From: an uncultured Microthrixaceae bacterium
Lineage (GTDB): Bacteria; Actinomycetota; Acidimicrobiia; Acidimicrobiales; VFJN01
Reading direction: 5' to 3'
Assembly (NCBI GenBank): GCA_963806205.1
Contig: CAWDXF010000004.1
Coordinates: 121,521 to 185,520 of the forward strand
Length of the DNA: 64,000 nucleotides
The translations under genes and the position numbers were made by a program. The notes beneath the pieces were generated by a model. The model was not told the origin of the DNA. It ran no database searches and was given only the letters and a program-made list of their open reading frames with translations. Within the stretch, counting starts at the first letter, position 1. Each line of letters starts with the position of its first letter. Positions 35,444 to 48,646 of this stretch are shown here, piece after piece.

Positions 35444-36393
35444 CTAGCGGCTGTAGCGGTCGAGGATGCGGGCGGCGGCGCGCCGGGCACCGGCCGCGAG
35501 CTCCGCGGGTCCGTCCACGACACGCGCTCCGGGCCCGAGGCCGATCAGCAGACGGTCGAGCCAGGGGGCCGCGCTGACCGCCAACGTGACCAGGGACGAG
35601 CCGTCGGCGCGCACCTCCGCCGCCTCGACCGGGTAGACGTCGCGCACCCACCCTGCGCTCGGCGGCAGCTCCAGCACGACCCGCGGGTCGGCGTCGTCGG
35701 CCCGGAACACCTCGGTGTGCAGCGGCTCGGAGGGCGGGGCGGCGGGTTCGTCGAGGAGCACGGCGCCTGCCACCCGGTCGACCCGGAAGAGGCGCTGGCC
35801 GCCGCGCGAGGTGGCAGTGGGCCAGGAGGTACAGGCTCCCGTCCTGGCTCTGGAGCAGGTAGGGGTCGACGTCGCGGACGGTCCGGGCGTCGCGGCCGTA
35901 GGTGTAGTAGTCGAGGCGCACCCGCCGGCCCTCCGTCGATCCCGGTCCGCAGCACCTCGACGACCTCGGGCGGGCCGGCGCCCAGGTCGATGTCCAGCAC
36001 CTGGTCCGCGTCGACGCCCAGCACCTCCGCCAGCTTGGCGACCCCGGACGCGAGGGCACCGTCCGGGTCGGCACCGGGCAGGGCGAGCACGGAGGCGCCA
36101 GCCGTCAGCAGCGCCACGGCCTGGTCCGGCGTGAGCCGGTGCGCCGTCTCGAACACCTCGGCGTAGTGGATCCAGACGCGATCACCCTCCTGCACCACGT
36201 CGACGAGGGCGTCAGGCGTGTACGGAGGGAGACCGACGAGCCAGACCACCTCGAGGTCGGCCGCCAGCTCGGCGGGTGTGATGCCGAACCGCGAGCAGAT
36301 CTCCGCGACCGTCGGCCCGTCGTGGGCGGCCACCCACGGCACCATCGCGAGGAGCCGCTGCAGCCGTTCCGCAGAGGGGCTGGGCGCATTCAC
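35444..36393 (-). pseudogene. pafC: PafC-type HTH/WYL regulator subunit; 2 frame switches
   Basis: VNAPSPSAERLQRLLAMVPWVAAHDGPTVAEICSRFGITPAELAADLEVVWLVGLPPY.. lies in ORF 35545-36792. RRVRLDYYTYGRDARTVRDVDPYLLQSQDGSLYLLAHC lies in ORF 35142-36074. The C-terminus lies in ORF 35444-35773. GTG 36393 overlaps the pafB TGA. Confidence 0.8.
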
Positions 36394-37322
36394 GTGAGCG
36401 CCTCGAGCCACGCGACCAGCTCGGCTCGCAGCTCGGGCGGCTCGAGCACCTCGGCGTGGTCGAGGAAGCCGAGCACGAAGGACCGGAACGCGCTGCGGTT
36501 GGTCACGGGCAGCTCGACGACGACCGAGCCGTCGTCCGCCTCGTCGACCACGTGGTCCGGTCCGACGTGCTGCACGGCCCACCGGGCCTGCGCGGCCGTC
36601 GATGCGCACCCGGGCCGTGACGCACCTCCTCCCCACCGAGCTCCCACACCCCGCGCACCCGGCCTGGCGACGGGTCGGGCGGCGGCACGTCGAAGGGGGG
36701 CTCGTCGAGGAGGAGCGACACCCCCTTCGATGCGGTCGAGCCGGAAGTTCCGCTCCTCGCCGTGCGTGTGGTCCAGACCCGTGAGGTACCACCGCCCGCG
36801 CTGGAACTCGAGCCGGTACGGGTCGATGCGGCGGTCCCGGTCCCGGTACCGGAGCTCGACCGGGGTCCGGCTCGACACGGCGCCGAACAGTGCGCTGAGG
36901 TTCGGATCGGCCGGGAGGGGGGCGACGCGCACGCCCACCCCACCCTCGTCCGGTGCGGCGACCAGGCCGCCGAGCTTGAGGAGGCCCGGCGTGGCCGACA
37001 GCCCCTCCACCTGCACGGCCGAGGCCGCGAGGTGCAGCGCGGCGAGCTCGTCGGTGGTCAGCCCGGGATCGCGGAGCGCGTACTCGTCGGGCGGGATGCG
37101 GTAGCCGTCGACCGCGGGCATGCGCCCGGGCACGGGCTCGATCCGCAGCGGGATGCCCATGCTCCGCAGCTCGTCCTTGTCGCGCTCGAACGCGCGGCGG
37201 AACGCGGCGCGATCCTCCGGGTAGTCGAGCTGGCGCTGGATGTCCTCGGCGGTCACCGGGAGCCGGGCCGCCAGCAGCAGCGCCGTGAGGTTGAGCAGGC
37301 GCTCCAGCTTGGCGGCGGCCAC
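36390..37322 (-). pseudogene. pafB: PafB-type HTH/WYL regulator subunit; 2 frame switches (about 36720 and 36630)
   Basis: From GTG 37322 in ORF 36390-37688: VAAAKLERLLNLTALLLAARLPVTAEDI..VELRYRDRDRRIDPYRLEFQRGRWYLTGLDH. A short internal block, GVSLLLDEPPFDVPPPDP..VWELGGEE, lies in ORF 36503-36943. The C-terminus is ..VVELPVTNRSAFRSFVLGFLDHAEVLEPPELR. Confidence 0.8.
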
Positions 37323-39771: not shown

Positions 39772-42298
39772 CTACTCGTAGCGGAGCGCGTCGAGCACCT
39801 CGACCCGCCCTGCCCGGCGGCTGGGGTAGTACGCGGCGGCCAGGGCCACGAGCACGGCGATCACGGCGTACTGGCCCACAGAGGCGAGGTCGACCACGTA
39901 GGGGTCCTTGTACCCGATGACCACCGGGGTGATCAGCACCATCGACAGGAACTGCACCAGGGAGAGCGCCCCGGTCACGATCACACCCAGGATCGCCACC
40001 AGCCCGGCTTCGGCCAGGATCATCCGCCGCAGCTCGGCCGGCGTCATGCCCACCGCGGCGAGCATCCCGAACTCCCGCTGTCGCTGGATGCCGACCAGCA
40101 GGAGCGTCGAGAGCACCGCGATGAAGCTCATGACGAGCAGGCCTCGCTGGACCGCGTTGAAGGTCGAGATCTGCTCGGCGATCTCACCCGTCACCCGCTC
40201 GACGACCTCGTCGGGCGTGCGCACCTCGATGGAAGGATCGAGCTCGGCCGCCTCGATCGCCGCGGCCAGCTGCTCGTTGCTGACGCCGTCGCTGGGCTGC
40301 ACGAGCACGGCGACGGGCGCCTCCTGCCCGTAGAGCTGTTGGATCAGCGAGAAGTCCATGAGGACGTTGCGGCCCCCGAAGTCGCCGTTGTAGACGACGG
40401 CCATCACCGGGAGCCGGACCGTCCCGTCCCGGGTCGGGAGCACGAGCTCGTCACCGGGGCGCAGGCGCTGGCTGCGGGCCAGGCCCGGTCCGATCGCCAC
40501 CTCGCCGGCCTCCAGCCCGGCGCGCGTGAGGCTGCCGGTGGCGACGCCCACGTCGAGCCACGGATCGGTGTACCCGCCGACGCCGATGAGGTCGCCCGGC
40601 TGGTTCCCCGCCACGAGGAACGCGGTGCGATCGATCGCGCGCACCTCGGGCAGGCGCTCGAGCTGCCTTGAGCACCGTCGAGCTGAGGCGCGCCTCGATG
40701 TTGACCGCGTTGTTGGGCTCCACGGCCGACACCTCGACGCCCTTCAGGTTCGCGGTGAGGCTCCTCGTCACCTCCTGCTTGATGGAGGTGTTCAGACTGC
40801 CGGTGACCACGCCCATGCCCATCGAGAACCCGACCGCGACCGCCATGACGCCCGTCCGGCGAGGTTCGCGGCGCAGGTTCGCCACCGCAAGGCGGCGTCG
40901 ACGCTCGGCGGAACGGGACGTGGAGGTCGATGAAGCGGAGCAGCACGGGCACCGCGGTCCCCACCAGGTAGATCCCCGGGAGCATCGTCGCAGAGGAACC
41001 CCGCCGGAGCGAGCGTCGACTGGTAGCGGGCGATGCCGCCGTTCCGCTGGGAGAGGAAGCTGAGGCCGACGCCCCCGGCCACCGCGACGGCTGCGGCCAG
41101 CAGGCGCCACACGGATGTGGACCGGGCCACCTCCTCGCGGCGGCCGCGACCGGCCAGCTCGGCCGCCACGTCGATGCGGACCGAGCGCCGGGCGGGGCCG
41201 AAGGAGGCGAGGGACGACACGCCGACCCCGACCGCGAGCCCGACGAACACGGCGTACGGCGTCGGCTGGATGTCCAGCGGAGATCCCCGCGATCTGCTGC
41301 ATGAAGTCGTCTAGCCCCCCCGAGATCGGGCGGGCGAGGACCAGCCCGCCGAGGATCCCGAGGCTGCCGCCGGCGAAGCCGAGCACGGCCGACTCGAGGA
41401 TCGTCCCCCAGACCAGGTGGGACCGGTTGCCGCCGAGCGCTCCCACGATCGCGGTCTGGCGCCGCCGTTCCTCCAACGAGAGCGTGATCGAGTTGCGCAC
41501 CAGGACACCGCCGATGCCGAGCGTGAGCAGCGACACCATCGTGAAGATCGGCAGGAAGTTCGCCGTGACCACGCCGATCAACGGTGGTGGGTCGAGCGCG
41601 TCGAGCACGACCACGGTCGGCCCGAGCTCGTCGTCGAGCTGCCGCTGCAGGTCGGCGATCCGCACGCCCGGGTCGGGGAGCACGTACACCAGGTCCACGC
41701 CGTCGCGCCGGCCGAGCTGGCGCTGCGCCTCCGGCAGGGACCAGGCCACGACCCGGCCCCCGTTCAGGCCGGTCGAGCTGCGTCAGGCCGATGGCGCCGG
41801 TCAGCGGGATCCGGCCGAGGTTGGTGCGGACCGCGGCGTCCGGTCCCACCTCGTCGAGCAGCGCGCTGCCGACGAAGGGTTGCTCGAGGGCCGATAGCGA
41901 ACGACGGGTTGCACCCGAAGTCGCGGAAGAGCGCCTCATGCGGCAGTCGAACCCGAGCGCCATCACCGGCGACGTCGTCGTCGTCGCCGGCCCCGCCTGC
42001 GTCGACGAGCGCGATGCCCTGCACCAGGGGGATGGCCGCCGCCACGCCGTCGGAGCCCTCGATCTGCTTGAACACGCTCGGCGAGATCCCGCCCTTCGAG
42101 AGGTTCCCCACGACCCGCAGGGGAGCGGGCCCGGCCAGGGCTCCGCCCGCCGTCGTCGACGGACTCCCGGAGGCTGGAGGTGATGACGAGGATCGACACC
42201 ACCAGGCTGGTCCCGGCACCCACGACGACCGCGGCGAGGATGGCCCGCAGCGGCTGCAGCCGCATCCGCCGCAGCGCGAGGAGCCGGATGACGCGCAC
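39772..42298 (-). pseudogene. FtsX/MacB-type ABC permease with two FtsX modules (about 840 codons); about 7 or more frame switches
   Basis: GTG 42298 begins [38 protein letters not shown]. The first FtsX module is [42 protein letters not shown] (ORF 40451-41749). The second N-terminal arm is [26 protein letters not shown]. The second FtsX module is [56 protein letters not shown] (ORF 39772-40644). Confidence 0.8.
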
Positions 42299-42306
42299 GG
42301 TTCGGC

Positions 42307-42968
42307 CTAGGTGATGTGGCCGTCGGTGAGGTACGTGCACGCGGTCGGCCCGGGCCGCGGCGTCCGGATCGTGGGTGACCATCAGCAGGGCGGCACCCTC
42401 CTGGCGCACCTCCTGCTCCAGCAGCGACAGGATCTCCGTGCCGTTGACGGAGTCCAGGTTGCCGGTGGGCTCGTCGGCCAGCAGCAGCCTCGGCCGGGCC
42501 ACGAGGGCCCGGGCGATCGCGGCGCGCTGCGCCTCGCCGCCGGACAGCTCGCCCGGCAGGTGGGTCATCCGGTGCCCGATGCCGACCCGGTGGAGGAGGT
42601 CGGGGCCGCGGCCGTCGCGCTTGCACCCCGTCGAGGAGCAGCGGCAGCTCGACGTTCTCCAGCACGTTCAGGGTCGGGATCAGGTGGAAGAACTGGAACA
42701 CGAAGCCGATCTCCCGGCGCCGCATCCGCGAGCGGTCGGTGATGCTCAGCCCGCCGACGTCCCGGCCGTCGAAGTAGACGGTGCCGGAGTCGGCGACGTC
42801 GAGGCCCCCGGCGAGGTGCAGGAGCGTGGACTTGCCCGACCCGCTCTTGCCCACGAGGGACACCAGCTCCCCCTCGCGCACGCTGAGATCGATCCCGTCG
42901 AGCGCCACGACCTCGCGCGAGCCCGCGGTGTACCGCTTCGACACGCGTTCGAAGCGGAGCAACGCCAC
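42307..42968 (-). pseudogene. MacB/LolD-type ABC ATP-binding protein; 2 frame switches
   Basis: GGAGGTGA lies 4 nt before GTG 42968. Walker A is GKSGSGKST, in the ORF 40404-44327 frame. The signature LSGGEAQR and Walker [13 protein letters not shown] lie in ORF 41963-42568. The end ..LTDGHIT-TAG at 42307 lies in another frame. Confidence 0.85.
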
Positions 42969-43006
42969 GCCTTCACCTCCCGCTGGTGGACTCCGGACCG
43001 GGAACG

Positions 43007-43682
43007 CTAGAGCAGCGGGCGCGAGCTCGTCGTCCTCGATGCGGCGGAACGCGCGGCGCCCGTTGGTGCGTGACAGCACCGCCACCTCGAGCTCCGGTGC
43101 GGTGAGCGTCCGGTCGGGGCCGGCCAGCGCGCCCACGGCGGCCTGCGCGGCACCGGCCAGGTCCAGGTCGGGCTGGTAGGCCGCCTCCAGTCGGGCGGTG
43201 ATCGCCTCGGCGTCGCCGCCGATCACGCTGTAGCGGTCCTCGTCCACCACCGAGCCGTCGTAGAGGATGTGGAAGACCTGGTCGTCGGCCGACGTCTCCC
43301 CCACCTCCGCCACGAGGATCTCGACCTCCATGGGCTTCATCTCGTGGGTGAAGATCTGGCCGAGCATCTGCGCATAGGCGTTGGCCAGGCTGCGGGCATC
43401 GACGTCCTCGCGGCTGTAGCTGTAGCCCGTGAGGTCCGCGTGGCGGACCCCGGCGATCCGCAGCTGGTCGAACTCGTTGTAGCGACCCACCCCGGCGAAG
43501 GCGATGCGGTCGTAGATCTCGCTCACCTTGTGGAGGGTGGCCGAGGAGTTCTCCGCCACGATGAGGATGCCGTCGGGGTAGAGCACGGCCACCGCGCTGC
43601 GGCCCCGGGCGATCCCCTTCCGGGCGTAGTCCGCCCGGTCCTTCATCACCTGCTCCGGCGCGACGTAGAACGGCAGGCTCAT
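43007..43682 (-). pseudogene. prcA: 20S proteasome alpha subunit PrcA; the stop codon is out of frame as sequenced
   Basis: [82 protein letters not shown] lies in ORF 40404-44327. The ORF reads through into the ABC ATPase. A TAG at 43007-43009 in the adjacent frame would give ..[11 protein letters not shown]. Confidence 0.85.
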
Positions 43683-44487
43683 GCGGTGGGCTCCGTCCCG
43701 CCGGTCTGCCTGCGCGGTGAGCTGGACGAGCAGCGTCTCGAAGCGGGTGCGGATGTCGTCGTCGCCGATCCGCTCGAAGCCGTCCCGGGTGATGGTGGCC
43801 ACCACCGGGAAGATCCCCCGCACCAGGTCCGGCCCGCCGGTCGCTGAGTCGGCGTCGGCCGCCTGCCACAGCGCGTGCAGCGCGAGGTCGATGACCGCGT
43901 CGACGCCCAGCCCCTCACGGAAGCCGAGCTTCACCACCGTGCCCGCGTGCAGGCTGCCGGAGCCGGTGCTCGCGTGGTCGGCCTCCTCGTAGCGGCCGCC
44001 GGTCACGTCGTACTGGAACAGCCGCCCCTGGCCGCGGCGCAGGTCGAAGCCCGCGAACAGGGGCACGACCGCGAAGCCCTGGATCGCGGCAGGCAGGTGG
44101 TTGCGCACCATCGTCGCGAGCTGGTTGGCCTTGCCCTCGAGGCTGAGCTGCGAGCCCTGCACCTTCTCGTAGTGCTCGAGCTGGAGCTGGAAGAGCTTCA
44201 CCATGTCCATGGCCGGTCCCGCCGCGCCCGCGATGGCCACGCCGCTGTGCCGGTCGGCGGGGAACACCTTCTCCATGGTCCGGTGCGAGATGAGGTTGCC
44301 CGCAGTGGCCCGCCGGTCACCCGCCATGAGGACGCCCTCGGTCGTACCGCACGGCCACCACCGTCGTGGCGTGGCTGATGTCCAGGGCCGCCCCGTCCGG
44401 GAGCGCGTCCGCGGGCCGGATCCGCTTGAGCAGGTCGACGAAGCTCGGGCCGGGATCGTCGGAGGCCGTGAAGATCGGCAAGGTCAT
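43679..44487 (-). pseudogene. prcB: 20S proteasome beta subunit PrcB (propeptide + Thr-1 active site); 2 frame switches
   Basis: ATG 44487 begins [36 protein letters not shown], a 57-codon frame ending in TGA. The sequence continues as (E)[25 protein letters not shown].. in ORF 40404-44327. The expected stop is the TGA of the ATGA overlap with prcA (43679-43682), which lies in another frame. Confidence 0.85.
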
Positions 44488-45023
44488 ACAGCGGCGAGGC
44501 TAGCCACGGATCGCCGTAACGACGGTCGCCTCGTCCTCTGCAGGTAGTCGATGGCCCGCTGCAACAGGTCCGGATCGTCCCGGAGCTTGCCGAGCCCGTG
44601 GTTGCAGTCGATGCAGAGGATCCCCCGCAGATGCCCGTGCTCATGGTCGTGATCGAGGTGCAAGGACGCCAGCCGTTCGGGCTGCATCCCGCAGATCGCG
44701 CACCCTCCGCCCTGGGCGGTGAGCATCCCGTCCACCTCGTCCGCCGAGATCCCGTAGGTGCGCAAGTAGTAGGCATCCCGCTGGCGGCGCTTCACCTCGG
44801 GGAGCGTGTTCCTCTCGCGTCGGTACGCGTTCAACCGATCGGCGTTCTCCTGCTGCCAACGCTTGACCATCGCCTTGTACTTGGCAGGATCGGCGGCATA
44901 ACGCGCTCGCTTCGCCGATCGGTGGCAGGCCTTGCAGTCGTTGCGATGACCGTCGCGCATCCCCTTCATCCGATAGAAGTCGTCGAAGGGCTTCAGCTCC
45001 CCGCAGACGACGCATCGCTTCAC
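44484..45023 (-). CDS. HNH endonuclease of the recombination endonuclease VII type, with an N-terminal Cys4 finger
   Basis: Intact 179 aa. The N-terminal finger is CVVCG..x21..CKAC. The core is CAICG..LHLDHDHEHGHLRGILCIDCNHGLG. The TGA overlaps the prcB ATG (ATGA). Three 60-nt samples gave 58-67% GC, against about 70% in the adjacent prcB. Confidence 0.8.
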   Translation of the reverse strand: MKRCVVCGELKPFDDFYRMKGMRDGHRNDCKACHRSAKRARYAADPAKYKAMVKRWQQENADRLNAYRRERNTLPEVKRRQRDAYYLRTYGISADEVDGMLTAQGGGCAICGMQPERLASLHLDHDHEHGHLRGILCIDCNHGLGKLRDDPDLLQRAIDYLQRTRRPSLRRSVASLAAV

Positions 45024-45078
45024 GCTTGGAGGCTACGCGCGGGGTAGGACATGGCCCGGAAGGCCAGATCTCGAGGGT

Positions 45079-45273
45079 CTATTGCCCGCCTTTTTGCACG
45101 TAACTTTTAACGAAGTCCTCTGCGTTCGACTCGAGGACCTCGTCGATCTCGTCGAGGAGGTCGTCGAGCTCGGCCTTGATCTTCTCGCCCTGCTCGGACT
45201 TCGCGGGGACGTCCTCGACGACCTCGTCGGCCTTGGCGGGCGCCTGCTTCTTCTTCTGCTCTCGCTCGGCCAT
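45079..45273 (-). CDS. pup: prokaryotic ubiquitin-like protein Pup (C-terminal GGQ)
   Basis: 64 aa: [47 protein letters not shown]. Confidence 0.95.
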
Positions 45274-45291: not shown

Positions 45292-46805
45292 CTATTGCCC
45301 GAGCTTGTCGAGCAGATCTGCGGCGCTCGTGCACCCGTCGATGAGGCTACCCACATGGGCGTGGGTTCCACGCAACGGCTCCATCATCGGCACGCGGCGG
45401 AGCGGATCGCCACCGACATCGAAGACCAGGGAGTCCCAGTTGGCGGCCACGATGCTCTCGGGCCAGCGCTGGAGGCAGCGGCCGCGGAAGTAGGCCCGGG
45501 TGTCCAGGGGGGGCTGGGTGACGGCGATGTCGACCTCCTCGTCGGTGGTGATGCGATCGAGGCCCACCCGGGCCGCGAGGGATCTTATCGGCACGGAGGT
45601 CGTGGTACTGGAGGTCCATGGCGGCAAGGCGGGCGTCGTCCCAGCGGAGGCCGTGGCGCTCGCGGTAGCCGTCGATGAGGCGGTGCTTGGCCACCCAGTC
45701 GACCTGGGCGGCGAGGCTGCCGGGGTCGGTCTCGAGGCCGCTGAGGACCTCCTCCCAGCGTCGCAGGACCTGGCCGCCGATGTCGTCGCCGCCGATGCAC
45801 TCGAGGCCGCGCTCCTCGGCGAGCTTGCGGGCGCGGTCCAGGTACTCCCACTGCACCTCGAGGGCGGTCATGCGGGAGCCGTCGGCCAGCTCGATGGGCT
45901 CGGCCAGCGTGAGGTCGTAGGAGACGCGCCGGAGGGCCTGGACCGGCCGGGCCGGGAGGAGGTCGCGGCGCAGCCAGTCGTCCTCGATCATCGACAGCAC
46001 GAGCGCCGTGGTGCCCACCTTGAGGAAGGTGGCGACCTCGGACATGTTGGCGTCGCCCACGATCACGTGGAGGCGCCGGTACTTCTGCGCGTCGGCATGG
46101 GGTTCGTCGCGGGTGTTGACGATGGGCCGCTTGAGCGTCGTCTCGAGGCCGACCTCCTCCTCGAAGAAGTCGGCGCGCTGGGTGAGCTGGAACGGCACGT
46201 CCTCGTGCGTGAGACCGGCGGCCTCGGTGCCGACCTTGCCGGCGCCGGTGAAGATCTGCCGGGTGATGAGGTGGGGCATGGCGTTGGCCACGATCTTCGA
46301 GAACGGGACCTGGCGGTCCATGAGGTAGTTCTCGTGGCAGCCGTAGCTGTTGCCCTTGCGGTCCGAGTTGTTCTTGTAGACGACCAGCTCCTGACCCTCG
46401 GGCAGCACGCTGGCGGCCGCCCGCATCGAGCGCTGGAGGATGAGCTCCGCGGCGCGGTCGTAGACGACGACGGTGCGCGGGTCGGCGCACTCCGGGGTGC
46501 TCAGCTCGGGATGGGCGTGGTCGACGTAGTACCGGGCGCCGTTGGTGAGCACCGCGTTCACCAGGTGGGTCTCCACCTCCGGTGGCATCGTGCCGTCCGC
46601 GCGTGAACCCGCGGGCGTCGTTGCCGGGGTGCTCGTCCTCGAAGTCCCATCCGACGCGCGCGGGACCGGACTGCGACGAGGCGCGAGCCAGCTCCTGGAC
46701 GTAGGCGTTGATCAGCACCGAGGAGGCGGCGATCGGGTTGGATTCGCCGCCCCGCACGAGGATGCCGTACTCGGTCTCGATCCCGAGCACCTTCCTCAGG
46801 GCCAC
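45292..46805 (-). pseudogene. dop: Pup deamidase/depupylase Dop; 2 frame switches (about 46590 and 45590)
   Basis: MALRKVLGIETEYGILVRGG.. lies in ORF 45585-46805. ..[49 protein letters not shown] lies in ORF 45347-46588. The C-terminus ..AYFRGRCLQRWPESIVAANWDSLVFD..LLDKLGQ lies in ORF 45292-45627. The gene sits between mpa and pup. Confidence 0.9.
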
Positions 46806-46825: not shown

Positions 46826-48646
46826 CTACAGGTACTGGCCGGTCGTCACCCGTTCGATCGACCGGCCCCCCTGGGGCGCCGAGTCGGCCTCGCGCTGGAC
46901 GATCGTGCGCACGTAGACGATCCGCTCGCCCTTCTTGCCCGAGATCTTCGCCCAGTCGTCCGGGTTCGTGGTGTTGGGCAGGTCCTCGTGCTCCTTGTAC
47001 TCCTGGTGGATCGAGGCGACGAGGTCCTCCACCCGGATGCCGCGGGTGCCGCCCTCCAGGAGGCGCTTGATGGCGAGCTTCTTGGCCCGCCGCACGATGT
47101 TCTCGATCATGGCCCCGGACGCGAAGTCCTTGAAGAACATGATCTCCTTGTCGCCGTTCTGGTACGTGACCTCCAGGAACTGGTTGCCCTCGTCGGTCCG
47201 GTACATCTCGGCGGCGGTGGACTCGATCATCGACTGCACGGCCTTGGCGGGATCGCCCCCGCCGAGGGTCCGCACGGTGTCCTCGTCGAGGGGCAGGTCC
47301 GCCGTGAGGTAGCGGGCAAAGATCTGGGCGGCCGCCTCCTCGGTGGGCCGCTCGATCTTGATCTTCACGTCGAGCCGGCCGGGCCGGAGGATGGCGGGAT
47401 CGATCAGGTCCTCGCGGTTGGACGCGCCGATCACGATCACGTTCTTGAGCGACTCGACGCCGTCGATCTCCACGAGGAGCTGCGGCACGATCGTCGACTC
47501 CATGTCGGAGGAGATCCCGGTGCCGCGGGTGCGGAACATCGAGTCCATCTCGTCGAAGAAGATGATGACCGGCCAGCCCTCCTCGGACTTCTCCCGCGCC
47601 CGCTGGAACACGAGCCGGATCTGCCGCTCGGTCTCGCCGACGTACTTGTTGAGGAGCTCGGGGCCCTTGATGTTGAAGAAGTAGGAGCGGGCCGCGTCGC
47701 CGGTCACGGCGGCGACCTTCTTCGCCAGGCTGTTGGCCACGGCCTTCGCGATCAGGGTCTTGCCGCAGCCGGGAGGGCCGTAGAGGAGGATGCCCTTCGG
47801 CGCCGGGAGCTTGTGCTCGGCGAACAGGTCCTGGTGGAGGTACGGGAGCTCGACCGCGTCGGCGATCTGCTCGATCTGCTCGTCGAGGCCGCCGATGTCC
47901 TCGTAGTCGATGTCCGGCACCTCCTCGAGGGCCAGCTCCTCCACCTCGGGCCGGGGGAGCTTCTCGAGGATGAGCCCCGAGCGGGGGTCCAGCAGGAGCG
48001 TGTCACCGCTGCGGAGGGTCACGTCCTGGAGGGCGTCGATGAGCTCGACGACCCGCTCCTCGTCGGCCCGGCCGACGATCAGGGCCCGGGCCCCCTCGAT
48101 GCGCTCCTTGAGCGTGACCACCTCGCCGGTGACCTCGGCGCCGCGGGACAGGACGACGTTGAGCGACTCGTTGAGCACGACCTCGGCGCCCCGGGTGAGG
48201 GGCTCGTCGCCGAGCTCGGGGTGCACGGCCACCCGGACCTTGCGGCCGCCCGTGAACACGTCGACCGTGCCGTCGTCGTTGGTGCCCACGACGGTGCCGT
48301 AGGCGGACGGCGGCTGGGTCAGCTTGTCGACCTCCTCGCGGAGGGCCGCGATGTGGTCGCGGGCCTCCCGCAGGGTGTAGGTCAGCTTCTCGTTCTGCGA
48401 GACGGCCTGGGACAGCTGGCCCTTCGTCTCGAGCAACCGCTCCTCCAGGGTCCGCACGCGCTTCGGGGCGTCCTGGAGCCGCCGGCGGAGGGAGAGGACC
48501 TCGTCCTCGAGGGTGCGCGCGTGCTCCTGCAGCTCCGCCAGCTCGCTTCCGCCGCTCGAGCGCTCGTCGGACTCGTCGACGGGGACCACCTCCCTCGGAT
48601 CGTCGCTCCCGCGGGACCCTACTACCGCGTGCCCCCGGAACAGCAC
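46826..48646 (-). CDS. mpa: proteasome-associated AAA ATPase Mpa/ARC
   Basis: The ORF is intact. It has a coiled-coil N-terminus, Walker A GPPGCGKT, Walker B IIFFDEMD and the C-terminal GQYL. The start is uncertain. GTG 48646 has no SD sequence, and an internal GTG (VVPVDESDE..) follows GAGGGAGG. Confidence 0.9.

Follow-up and report, generated by a model that had tools for sequence, protein, structure and literature searches.

A phage-type endonuclease VII gene between pup and prcB of Acidimicrobiia and its predicted DNA-damage promoter

A 64,000-nucleotide (nt) stretch of DNA from an uncultured Microthrixaceae bacterium (contig CAWDXF010000004.1 of assembly GCA_963806205.1; the whole stretch is called the window) carries an open reading frame (ORF) between pup and prcB of the Pup-proteasome locus. 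The ORF lies on the minus strand (44484..45023), starts with GTG and comprises 179 codons plus a TGA stop that overlaps the ATG of prcB. It is a real endonuclease VII-type nuclease gene, whose product is of the two-zinc, beta-beta-alpha-Me type represented by phage endonuclease VII and Hpy99I. We read the gene as a phage-derived nuclease that has become an old resident of the Pup-proteasome locus and was domesticated into the DNA-damage response, and assign a probability of roughly one half to this reading. Judged by its sequence, the gene looks active and is under purifying selection. It seems to be a long-resident, vertically inherited, often lost and thus dispensable member of the Pup-proteasome locus in the Acidimicrobiia. 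New here is the prediction of a DNA-damage promoter in the spacer between pup and the nuclease gene.

Using a Pfam search, residues 88-162 of the protein were assigned to PF02945 (Endonuclease_7; E=7.1e-25, 87.2 bits with a cut-off of 23.6). The PHROG family endonuclease VII (phrog_2633) matched over the full length (E=1.2e-37), PADLOC returned a weak type II restriction endonuclease hit (3e-9) and an NCBIfam search of the nuclease gave no meaningful family. The AlphaFold2 (AF2) model, built on 100 homologues, reached a predicted local distance difference test (pLDDT) score of 93.6 and consists of an N-terminal zinc ribbon, four long helices and a beta-beta-alpha-Me domain. The zinc ribbon (44925..45014, minus strand) contains C4, C7, C30 and C33 as well as the conserved motif MRDGHRNDC, and is followed by the four-helix linker (residues 31-90, according to the secondary structure of the model). 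A second Cys4 site (C108, C111, C137, C140) and the residues D124, H125, H127 and N141 are found in the nuclease domain (44538..44762, minus strand), the core of which is LHLDHDHEHGHLRGILCIDCNHGLG (residues 121-145). Both Cys4 sites and the four residues D124/H125/H127/N141 are invariant or at least 90% conserved among the 100 homologues. The GTG start is supported, since the homologues begin at the same MKRCxxCG residues. An earlier note on this DNA, made from the sequence alone, had proposed an endonuclease VII/HNH protein with an N-terminal Cys4 finger, and this assignment is borne out by the hidden Markov model (HMM) search, the fold and the conserved residues. Its description of an intact 179-codon ORF that begins 55 nt after pup and shares an ATGA stop/start overlap with prcB is likewise correct.

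The best match in a profile search of the PDB was Hpy99I (1e-13), and T4 endonuclease VII was found with 1e-11. A Foldseek search with the AF2 model detected Hpy99I (3fc3; E=5e-5, 172 columns) and T4 endonuclease VII (1en7), the core of which superposes with a root-mean-square deviation (rmsd) of 2.2 A over 87 columns. T4 endonuclease VII (gp49; 1en7, 1e7d, 2qnc) belongs to the same Pfam family as the window protein. Its residues C23, C26, C58 and C61 together with D40, H41, H43 and N62 (T4 numbering) align with C108, C111, C137 and C140 and with D124, H125, H127 and N141 of the window protein. In contrast to the latter, the T4 enzyme has neither an N-terminal zinc ribbon nor a four-helix linker, its C-terminal dimerisation region is unmatched in the window protein, and the window gene is chromosomal rather than phage-borne. 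With the type II restriction enzyme Hpy99I, an alignment was obtained for the nuclease core and also, as a weak match, for a CxxC...CxxC zinc finger upstream of it. The identity is 23% and the domain arrangement differs (rmsd 21 A overall), with the N-terminal beta-barrel of Hpy99I being absent from the window protein. The full-length architecture is common to the window protein and the phage endonuclease VII proteins of phrog_2633. Gp1 of the Arthrobacter phage MargaretKali is 42% identical over residues 1-165, and a total number of 993 phage records match the nuclease, 314 of which cover at least 80% of the protein. The phage copies are located near terminase or amid phage genes, whereas the pup-linked group forms a cluster of its own. 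The nuclease was very probably derived from phage endonuclease VII.

For comparison, pup/nuclease loci were fetched from related genomes and metagenomes (the L-numbered loci; 1.24 Mb in all). The closest database proteins show 60-75% identity and come from Acidimicrobiia and Microthrixaceae metagenome-assembled genomes; all three database homologues that were looked up directly follow pup. In the sister genomes L001, L002, L003 and L031, the slot after pup is taken by orthologues with 58-71% identity. A metagenome scan with the nuclease alignment identified 59 orthologues (identity of at least 39%) whose upstream flank could be read, and all 59 lie 0-94 nt after pup. The Dop proteins of their hosts are 50-95% identical to the reference. 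Apart from these, 8 loci were too short upstream to judge, and all that is left in a further locus, L148, is a remnant ~190 nt past pup. Twelve relatives below 38-40% identity were located elsewhere, some of them amid phage genes. Within the pooled set, the top 57 matches of the window protein are all pup-linked and viral sequences start at rank 60. This ranking and the fixed slot define the pup-linked nucleases as an orthologous group with a fixed address. A Pup search of plasmids gave no match.

The spacer between pup and the nuclease gene of the window (45024..45078, minus strand) is 55 nt long and contains the PafBC-type bipartite motif TGTCCTACCCCGCGCGTAGCCT (45030..45051, minus strand) with TGTC at −26 (45048-45051) and TAGCCT at −10 (45030-45035). 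A leaderless nuclease mRNA is predicted, since the −10 element ends 6 nt (45024-45029) before the GTG. The published PafBC consensus is a 22-nt motif, tGTCgg(N10)tA(N3)T, the 3′ part of which is a SigA −10 element without a −35; its GTC triplet is contacted by PafB and reported to be conserved across actinobacteria (PMC8635444). The window motif fits this layout of the mycobacterial PafBC (RecA-NDp) promoters position for position, and the regulator genes are encoded in the same locus. The GTC is followed by GG in the mycobacterial consensus, compared to AC in the nuclease family and CT in the window, which comes from a different class of the Actinomycetota. The sole match to TGTCNYR(N9)TANNNT in the 64-kb window is the one at 45030-45051 (0.11 expected). 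A generic promoter and terminator scan of the window spacer revealed neither a sigma-70 −35/−10 pair nor an intrinsic terminator.

Among 63 non-redundant pup-nuclease spacers, nGTC(N12)TAnnnT was found in 27, compared to 0.47 in shuffled sequences. In 22 of the 27, 6-7 nt lie between the end of the −10 element and the start codon, as would be expected for a leaderless transcript. Many other spacers show, by eye, a GTCACAC element with a weaker −10. A LexA box, GAAC(N4)GTTC, is located between a TTGAC −35 and the −10 in 14 of the 63 spacers (0.40 in shuffled sequences). These boxes resemble the SOS boxes of S. venezuelae (PMC9380542). They belong to a host clade other than that of the window, where no SOS box TCGAAC(N4)GTTCGA was found near the nuclease gene. 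Both damage motifs are restricted to nuclease loci, being absent from all 66 pup-prcB spacers that lack the nuclease gene. The PafBC-type motif has 35 matches in the 1.24 Mb of loci, ~30 of which lie in a pup-nuclease spacer, 26 directly before the nuclease ORF and the rest before a remnant or an unscored copy. LexA boxes are used by one clade and the PafBC type by others; a small sub-clade lacks a spacer altogether. Two apparently different damage-responsive control systems at one gene represent the strongest evidence for a selected damage-inducible expression. With the PafBC-type motif directly upstream and pafBC 7 kb downstream of the nuclease gene, the second option of the earlier note, in which the nuclease acts as a functional partner with a connection to PafBC and the DNA-damage response, receives strong support.

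Some further motifs were noticed in these loci. In the clade-A spacers of L084, L086, L134 and L135, which carry no damage motif, the nuclease start is directly preceded by a strong inverted repeat, CCCTCCCGGACAAGGTCGTTCGGGAGGG. Outside the nuclease spacers, the PafBC-type motif is clear only in L083 (10289-10310), 6 nt before a pafB-like ORF. A motif match in L062 (9216) precedes an ORF starting with VSLPRFEPHDDPGPSF, apparently the gene of a second PrcB paralogue, located past the main prcBA; second Pup_ligase/Proteasome paralogues are present in some loci.

The nuclease orthologues diverge far more than the flanking proteins, as is seen for L002 and L003 with an identity of 66% for the nuclease and 93% for Dop. 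The nucleotide identity in a sliding window stays high up to the stop codon of pup and falls directly past it, the drop being confined to the N-terminal half of the nuclease. In three close genome pairs, the synonymous divergence (dS) of the nuclease domain is 0.49-0.78, compared to 0.28-0.59 for pup, dop and mpa. The ratio of nonsynonymous divergence (dN) to dS is 0.18-0.36 for the whole gene, 0.12-0.30 for the nuclease domain (0.12-0.15 in the three close pairs) and 0.18-0.47 for the N-terminal half (0.36-0.47 in the close pairs, with a tenfold higher dN). The gene is thus under purifying selection. Trees of the nuclease and Dop agree in their terminal clusters and share 9 of 27 bipartitions, the deeper nodes being poorly resolved. 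The Mantel correlation between the two is r=0.25, a value reached in none of 2000 permutations, and the promoter type tracks the host clades.

As the earlier note had correctly described, the GC content of the nuclease gene is lower than that of prcB, the measured values being 65.4% and 72.0%; the values for prcA, mpa and the whole window are 70.5%, 69.3% and 72.9%, respectively. The GC content at third codon positions (GC3) is 0.855, compared to 0.97-0.98 in prcB, prcA and mpa. However, pup is equally low (GC 61.5%, GC3 0.875). Across 10 genomes, the GC3 of the nuclease ranges between 0.70 and 0.87. It is lower than that of dop in all 10 and below that of prcB and prcA (0.86-0.99) in 8, with about equal values in L002 and L003. 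The composition is no mark of a recent arrival, because the low GC3 is family-wide and common to pup. The flank-like dS, the agreement of trees and promoter types and the family-wide low GC3 point to a long vertical residence with repeated loss.

The end of pup differs between genomes with and without the nuclease. The GC3 of the last 20 pup codons is 0.65 in nuclease carriers and 0.85 in non-carriers (p=1.5e-5, uncorrected for kinship), whereas the rest of pup shows no such difference. In the window, the last 20 codons (45082-45141) have a GC3 of 0.65 compared to 0.98 for the rest of the gene. Within the clade of the window, the carriers range between 0.55 and 0.70 and the genomes L004, L007, L009 and L068 between 0.95 and 1.0. 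For 49 metagenomic carriers, the GC3 of the pup tail is 0.64 versus 0.81 for the rest of pup. In addition, a decayed second copy of the last pup codons (TAYGTNCAR, Y-V-Q) opens 16 of the 63 spacers, compared to 0.09 in shuffled sequences (L022, L039, L092, L096-L098, L105, L108, L109, L118, L124, L125, L129, L132, L138 and L143). This copy lies within the first 4-18 nt past the stop codon and reads ..AAG T TAC GTA CAA G.., coding for K-S-Y-V-Q-K. The spacer of the window contains no second pup-codon copy. A target-site duplication around the window copy, which the earlier note had suggested to look for, was not found when the junction was aligned with that of L004. The marks at the pup tail could result from homing immunity or co-conversion, from old illegitimate recombination or from requirements of the region upstream of the promoter.

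In 41 of 52 loci, at most 145 nt separate the nuclease stop codon from the start of prcB; the median distance is 29 nt and the usual gap 11-49 nt. An ATGA overlap (tcat at 44484-44487 on the plus strand) is found only in the window and in L078. The ORF of the window contains a −10-like TAGCCT (44497..44502, minus strand) inside its 3′ tail GCTAGCCTCGCCGCTGTATGACC. The same TAGCCT is carried by the prcB leader of L004 (GCTAGCCTCGCC..ATGACC), and according to blastn the two sequences are homologous again from 20 nt before prcB on. The 15-residue C-terminal tail and the ATGA can hence be explained by a read-through of the ORF into the old prcB leader. The N-terminus of the window PrcB aligns to its relatives from residue 1 on. 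The ATGA was therefore rejected as a conserved coupling device: the overlap described in the earlier note exists, but the translational coupling derived from it is specific to the window and L078 and not conserved.

Loci without the nuclease show a conserved (G)GTAGCCTC 7-9 nt before the prcB start (e.g., L009, L011, L015, L018 and L074). Similarly, TAGGGT or TAGCCT is located 6-9 nt before the start of pafB. The motifs suggest that leaderless promoters, or promoters with a very short leader, are the rule in these genomes. The pup-prcB junction also forms a hot spot at which other insertions, 0.6-5.4 kb in length, are found (L002, L003, L010, L012, L013, L019, L032, L057 and L073). They comprise a methyltransferase, an opposite-strand Polyketide_cyc2/SRPBCC gene and other ORFs (L002 10549-11550; L003 10555-12974), and they differ even where Dop is 93% identical.

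On the minus strand of the window, the genes are arranged in the order mpa, dop, pup, nuclease, prcB and prcA, followed by an ABC transporter, pafA, a DUF3866 gene, pafB and pafC. The proteasomal ATPase gene mpa/arc (46826..48646) is intact and codes for 606 aa with 88% identity to Mpa of L002. The depupylase gene dop (45295..46805) is followed by pup (45079..45273), which codes for 64 aa with a C-terminal GGQ (Pfam Pup, 7.8e-21). The gene for the proteasome beta subunit, prcB (43690..44487), has its ATG at 44485-44487. Its 3′ end is approximate, as the last aligned residue is at 43728 and an in-frame stop is absent before prcA at 43682. The alpha subunit gene prcA (43023..43682) shows 85% identity to PrcA of L002 (tblastn). 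The regulator genes pafB (36393-37322; 66% identity to L002 PafB) and pafC (35453-36387, frame-disrupted; 54-75% identity to L002 PafC) were located by tblastn, all on the minus strand. The Pfam domains HTH_PafC, WYL and WCX were found on the pafB and pafC genes of L002, PafBC being a WYL-domain regulator that is predicted to act on the promoter at 45030-45051.

Single-base insertions disrupt dop at 46603 and 45593 and prcB near 44335 (an extra C), which corresponds to about one per kb. These insertions are unique to the window, being absent from four relatives, and lie outside homopolymer runs; they may reflect assembly errors or real decay. The pafC and DUF3866 genes are likewise split, and prcB, prcA and the ABC ATPase gene merge without stops into a single 1307-aa ORF (40404-44327). 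The frame breaks of the neighboring genes thus agree with the earlier note. The intactness of the nuclease gene among them was rejected as a sign of selection, since at ~1 disruption per kb an intact 540-nt ORF is expected by chance.

A gene of the same family is found in the same slot in Streptomyces. Streptomyces Pup proteins were retrieved with a Pup query. The order dop, pup, Endonuclease_7 gene (196-201 aa), prcB and prcA was detected in all nine loci, in the same orientation and with the nuclease gene overlapping the called prcB start. The gene is absent from Kitasatospora and Actinacidiphila, with an HVDH fragment left in one Kitasatospora spacer, and was thus lost in some relatives here, too. 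In S. coelicolor, SCO1646 is pup (PMC11356632) and SCO1644 encodes the proteasome beta subunit (PMC7042404). The order of pup, nuclease and prcB fits this numbering. The gene in between, SCO1645, is presumably the nuclease gene. The Streptomyces nuclease is 33% identical to that of the window, from which it differs by two tandem N-terminal zinc ribbons and the lack of a helical linker. Its distance to the Acidimicrobiia group is no smaller than that of viral proteins, and a domain tree (80 columns) does not separate orthology of the Streptomyces and Acidimicrobiia genes from independent capture. A literature search found no study of the Streptomyces slot gene and no link of endonuclease VII to pup/prcB or PafBC; the apparent matches for endonuclease VII turned out to be endonuclease VIII.

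Several observations weigh against a domesticated damage-response nuclease. The first concern is its distribution. A total of 80 Acidimicrobiia loci was obtained by scanning species genomes with the window Pup, hence chosen by Pup similarity, and the nuclease was scored by tblastn and an HMM search of the pup-prcB interval. It is retained, whole or in part, in 12 of the 80 genomes. The gene is intact in 7 loci and truncated, internally deleted or frameshifted in 5 (L006, L014, L039, L075 and L082). L014 is a clear deletion remnant in which the promoter and the 5′ and 3′ ends of the cassette are kept. In ~50 loci prcB lies within 70 nt of pup, and ~9 loci have unexplained pup-prcB spacers of 110-280 nt. 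According to a tree of Dop and PrcA, the carriers belong to two host clades and are mixed with genomes without the gene. L004, the closest relative (83% nucleotide identity), lacks the nuclease cleanly, with 7 nt in place of 574 nt of the window (blastn). The earlier note had regarded occurrence at this position throughout the lineage, with a host-like composition, as the mark of an old resident. This is largely borne out, the position being the same for all 59 orthologues in deeply diverged hosts.

The promoter raises further doubts. The window promoter is predicted to be of the PafBC type from its likeness to the consensus of mycobacteria, whereas the host belongs to another class, and its −26 element reads TGTCCT instead of the TGTCAC usual for the family. 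As an independent check of the motif, the region upstream of pafB was searched for signs of autoregulation, and the motif was absent in 31 of 32 loci. In the sub-clade of L091, L093, L099, L112, L156 and L078, the nuclease starts with TTG 0-2 nt past the pup stop codon and has no motif. This zero-spacer sub-clade represents a third arrangement, apparently coupled to the translation of pup. The Streptomyces spacer is 32 nt long and was read in L164-L166, without a formal scan, as having no GTC triplet. Owing to these two cases, damage control is not universal. With regard to the protein, the equivalent of E65 of T4 endonuclease VII is missing and replaced by Leu144 (NHGLG in the window, NAAEG in T4). 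Hpy99I likewise lacks an equivalent of Glu65 (NTGLG), so Leu144 is not disqualifying for the wider family. Finally, the role of the nuclease in repair is a prediction, and selfish elements, too, are typically expressed upon DNA damage.

These points lead to the rival explanations. Free-standing HNH homing endonucleases of the T4 Mob and Seg type are known from phages. The window gene resembles them as a small nuclease gene between conserved genes that is distributed sporadically, has decayed copies and is accompanied by changed synonymous sites in its conserved neighbor; it differs in being chromosomal, mostly vertically inherited and equipped with a predicted host damage-response promoter. 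A selfish nuclease of this kind would target the empty pup-prcB junction or the conserved 3′ end of pup. It would persist by repeatedly invading, decaying, being lost and invading anew, and its expression upon damage would time cleavage to active recombination repair. We consider this possible, though clearly less likely than domestication. It would account for the patchiness among close relatives with the clean presence/absence difference between the window and L004, for the remnants in five Acidimicrobiia loci and in Kitasatospora, and for a slot that always lies between two highly conserved genes. The phage family with its 993 records, the phage-like contexts of the nearest relatives that are not linked to pup and the very fast evolution of the N-terminal half also fit. 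The shifted pup tail could consist of immunity substitutions or co-conversion, and the pup-codon copy resembles an insertion scar. Conversely, the nuclease domain and the flanks show equal synonymous divergence, which is not the pattern of horizontal spread, and promoter type and terminal clades follow the host tree. The best 57 matches are pup-linked and none is viral, no target-site duplication exists at the window copy, pup identity is high right up to the stop codon, and purifying selection was kept over host divergence down to 50-60% Dop identity. The GC3 footprint in pup, moreover, is given without a correction for phylogeny. The suggestion of the earlier note that the gene may be a homing-type, selfish element is supported by patchiness, decayed copies and flank scars, whereas flank-like dS and host-following clades speak against it. 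A related and rather improbable version assumes that a homing-type nuclease recognizing the pup 3′ end or the empty junction entered Acidimicrobiia and Streptomyces independently and is fired by PafBC or LexA. The low identity of the Streptomyces protein in the same slot is compatible with such an independent capture. Cleavage would then coincide with induced recombination repair, and the pup-codon copy and the AT-shifted pup tail would be scars of insertion and immunity.

A recent horizontal acquisition in this genome, as the GC content had been read in the earlier note, is hardly credible. The lower GC and GC3 of the gene compared to its neighbors and the lack of the gene in the closest sampled relative would fit, but the low GC3 recurs in all 10 genomes and in pup, the sister genomes L001, L002, L003 and L031 hold orthologues in the same slot, dS matches that of the flanks and the promoter follows the clades. 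A sequence-specific, Hpy99I-like restriction or anti-phage nuclease that lies in the locus by chance is very unlikely as well. Hpy99I is the best PDB match by sequence and fold, including the first zinc finger, the weak PADLOC hit points to the same enzyme class, the N-terminal module evolves rapidly, and in L002 a methyltransferase gene follows the nuclease gene. However, no cognate methyltransferase occurs in the window or most loci, no defence-system neighbors were seen, and a fixed slot beside pup and damage-type promoters are unexpected for a defence gene. Equally little probability is given to the idea that the protein is irrelevant and that the cassette is maintained for a promoter placing prcBA under DNA-damage control. 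The tight packing of nuclease and prcB in 41 of 52 loci and the lack of a damage motif in spacers without the nuclease agree with it. The dN/dS well below 1 and the invariant catalytic and zinc residues, on the other hand, indicate selection on the protein, and the nuclease is intact in L002, L003 and L032 although it is parted from prcB by further genes, which in L002 and L003 lie on the opposite strand.

If the nuclease is indeed domesticated, PafBC would recruit RNA polymerase to the −26 GTC/−10 TAGCCT promoter after DNA damage, giving rise to a leaderless nuclease mRNA. The nuclease gene would form a transcription unit of its own. The damage-induced transcript would probably continue into prcBA, because the gap between the nuclease gene and prcB is short and no terminator was seen in the window. 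Within the DNA-damage response, the nuclease would most likely cut damaged or branched DNA, or a specific sequence.

The Pup-proteasome and the PafBC response are linked genetically and functionally in mycobacteria. To our knowledge, no direct cis link between them exists in the mycobacterial model locus. Provided that the promoter functions as predicted, the nuclease and the 20S proteasome genes would both be induced by DNA damage from a position within the locus. A PafBC- or LexA-type promoter on a nuclease gene that mostly lies at most 50 nt from prcB would then represent a concrete wiring between both systems. Streptomyces, whose pup-prcB slot holds a member of this nuclease family as well, offers a tractable model. 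With its patchy, decaying distribution and the scars at its flanks, the gene is a natural case for comparing a domesticated with a still-selfish phage-derived nuclease.

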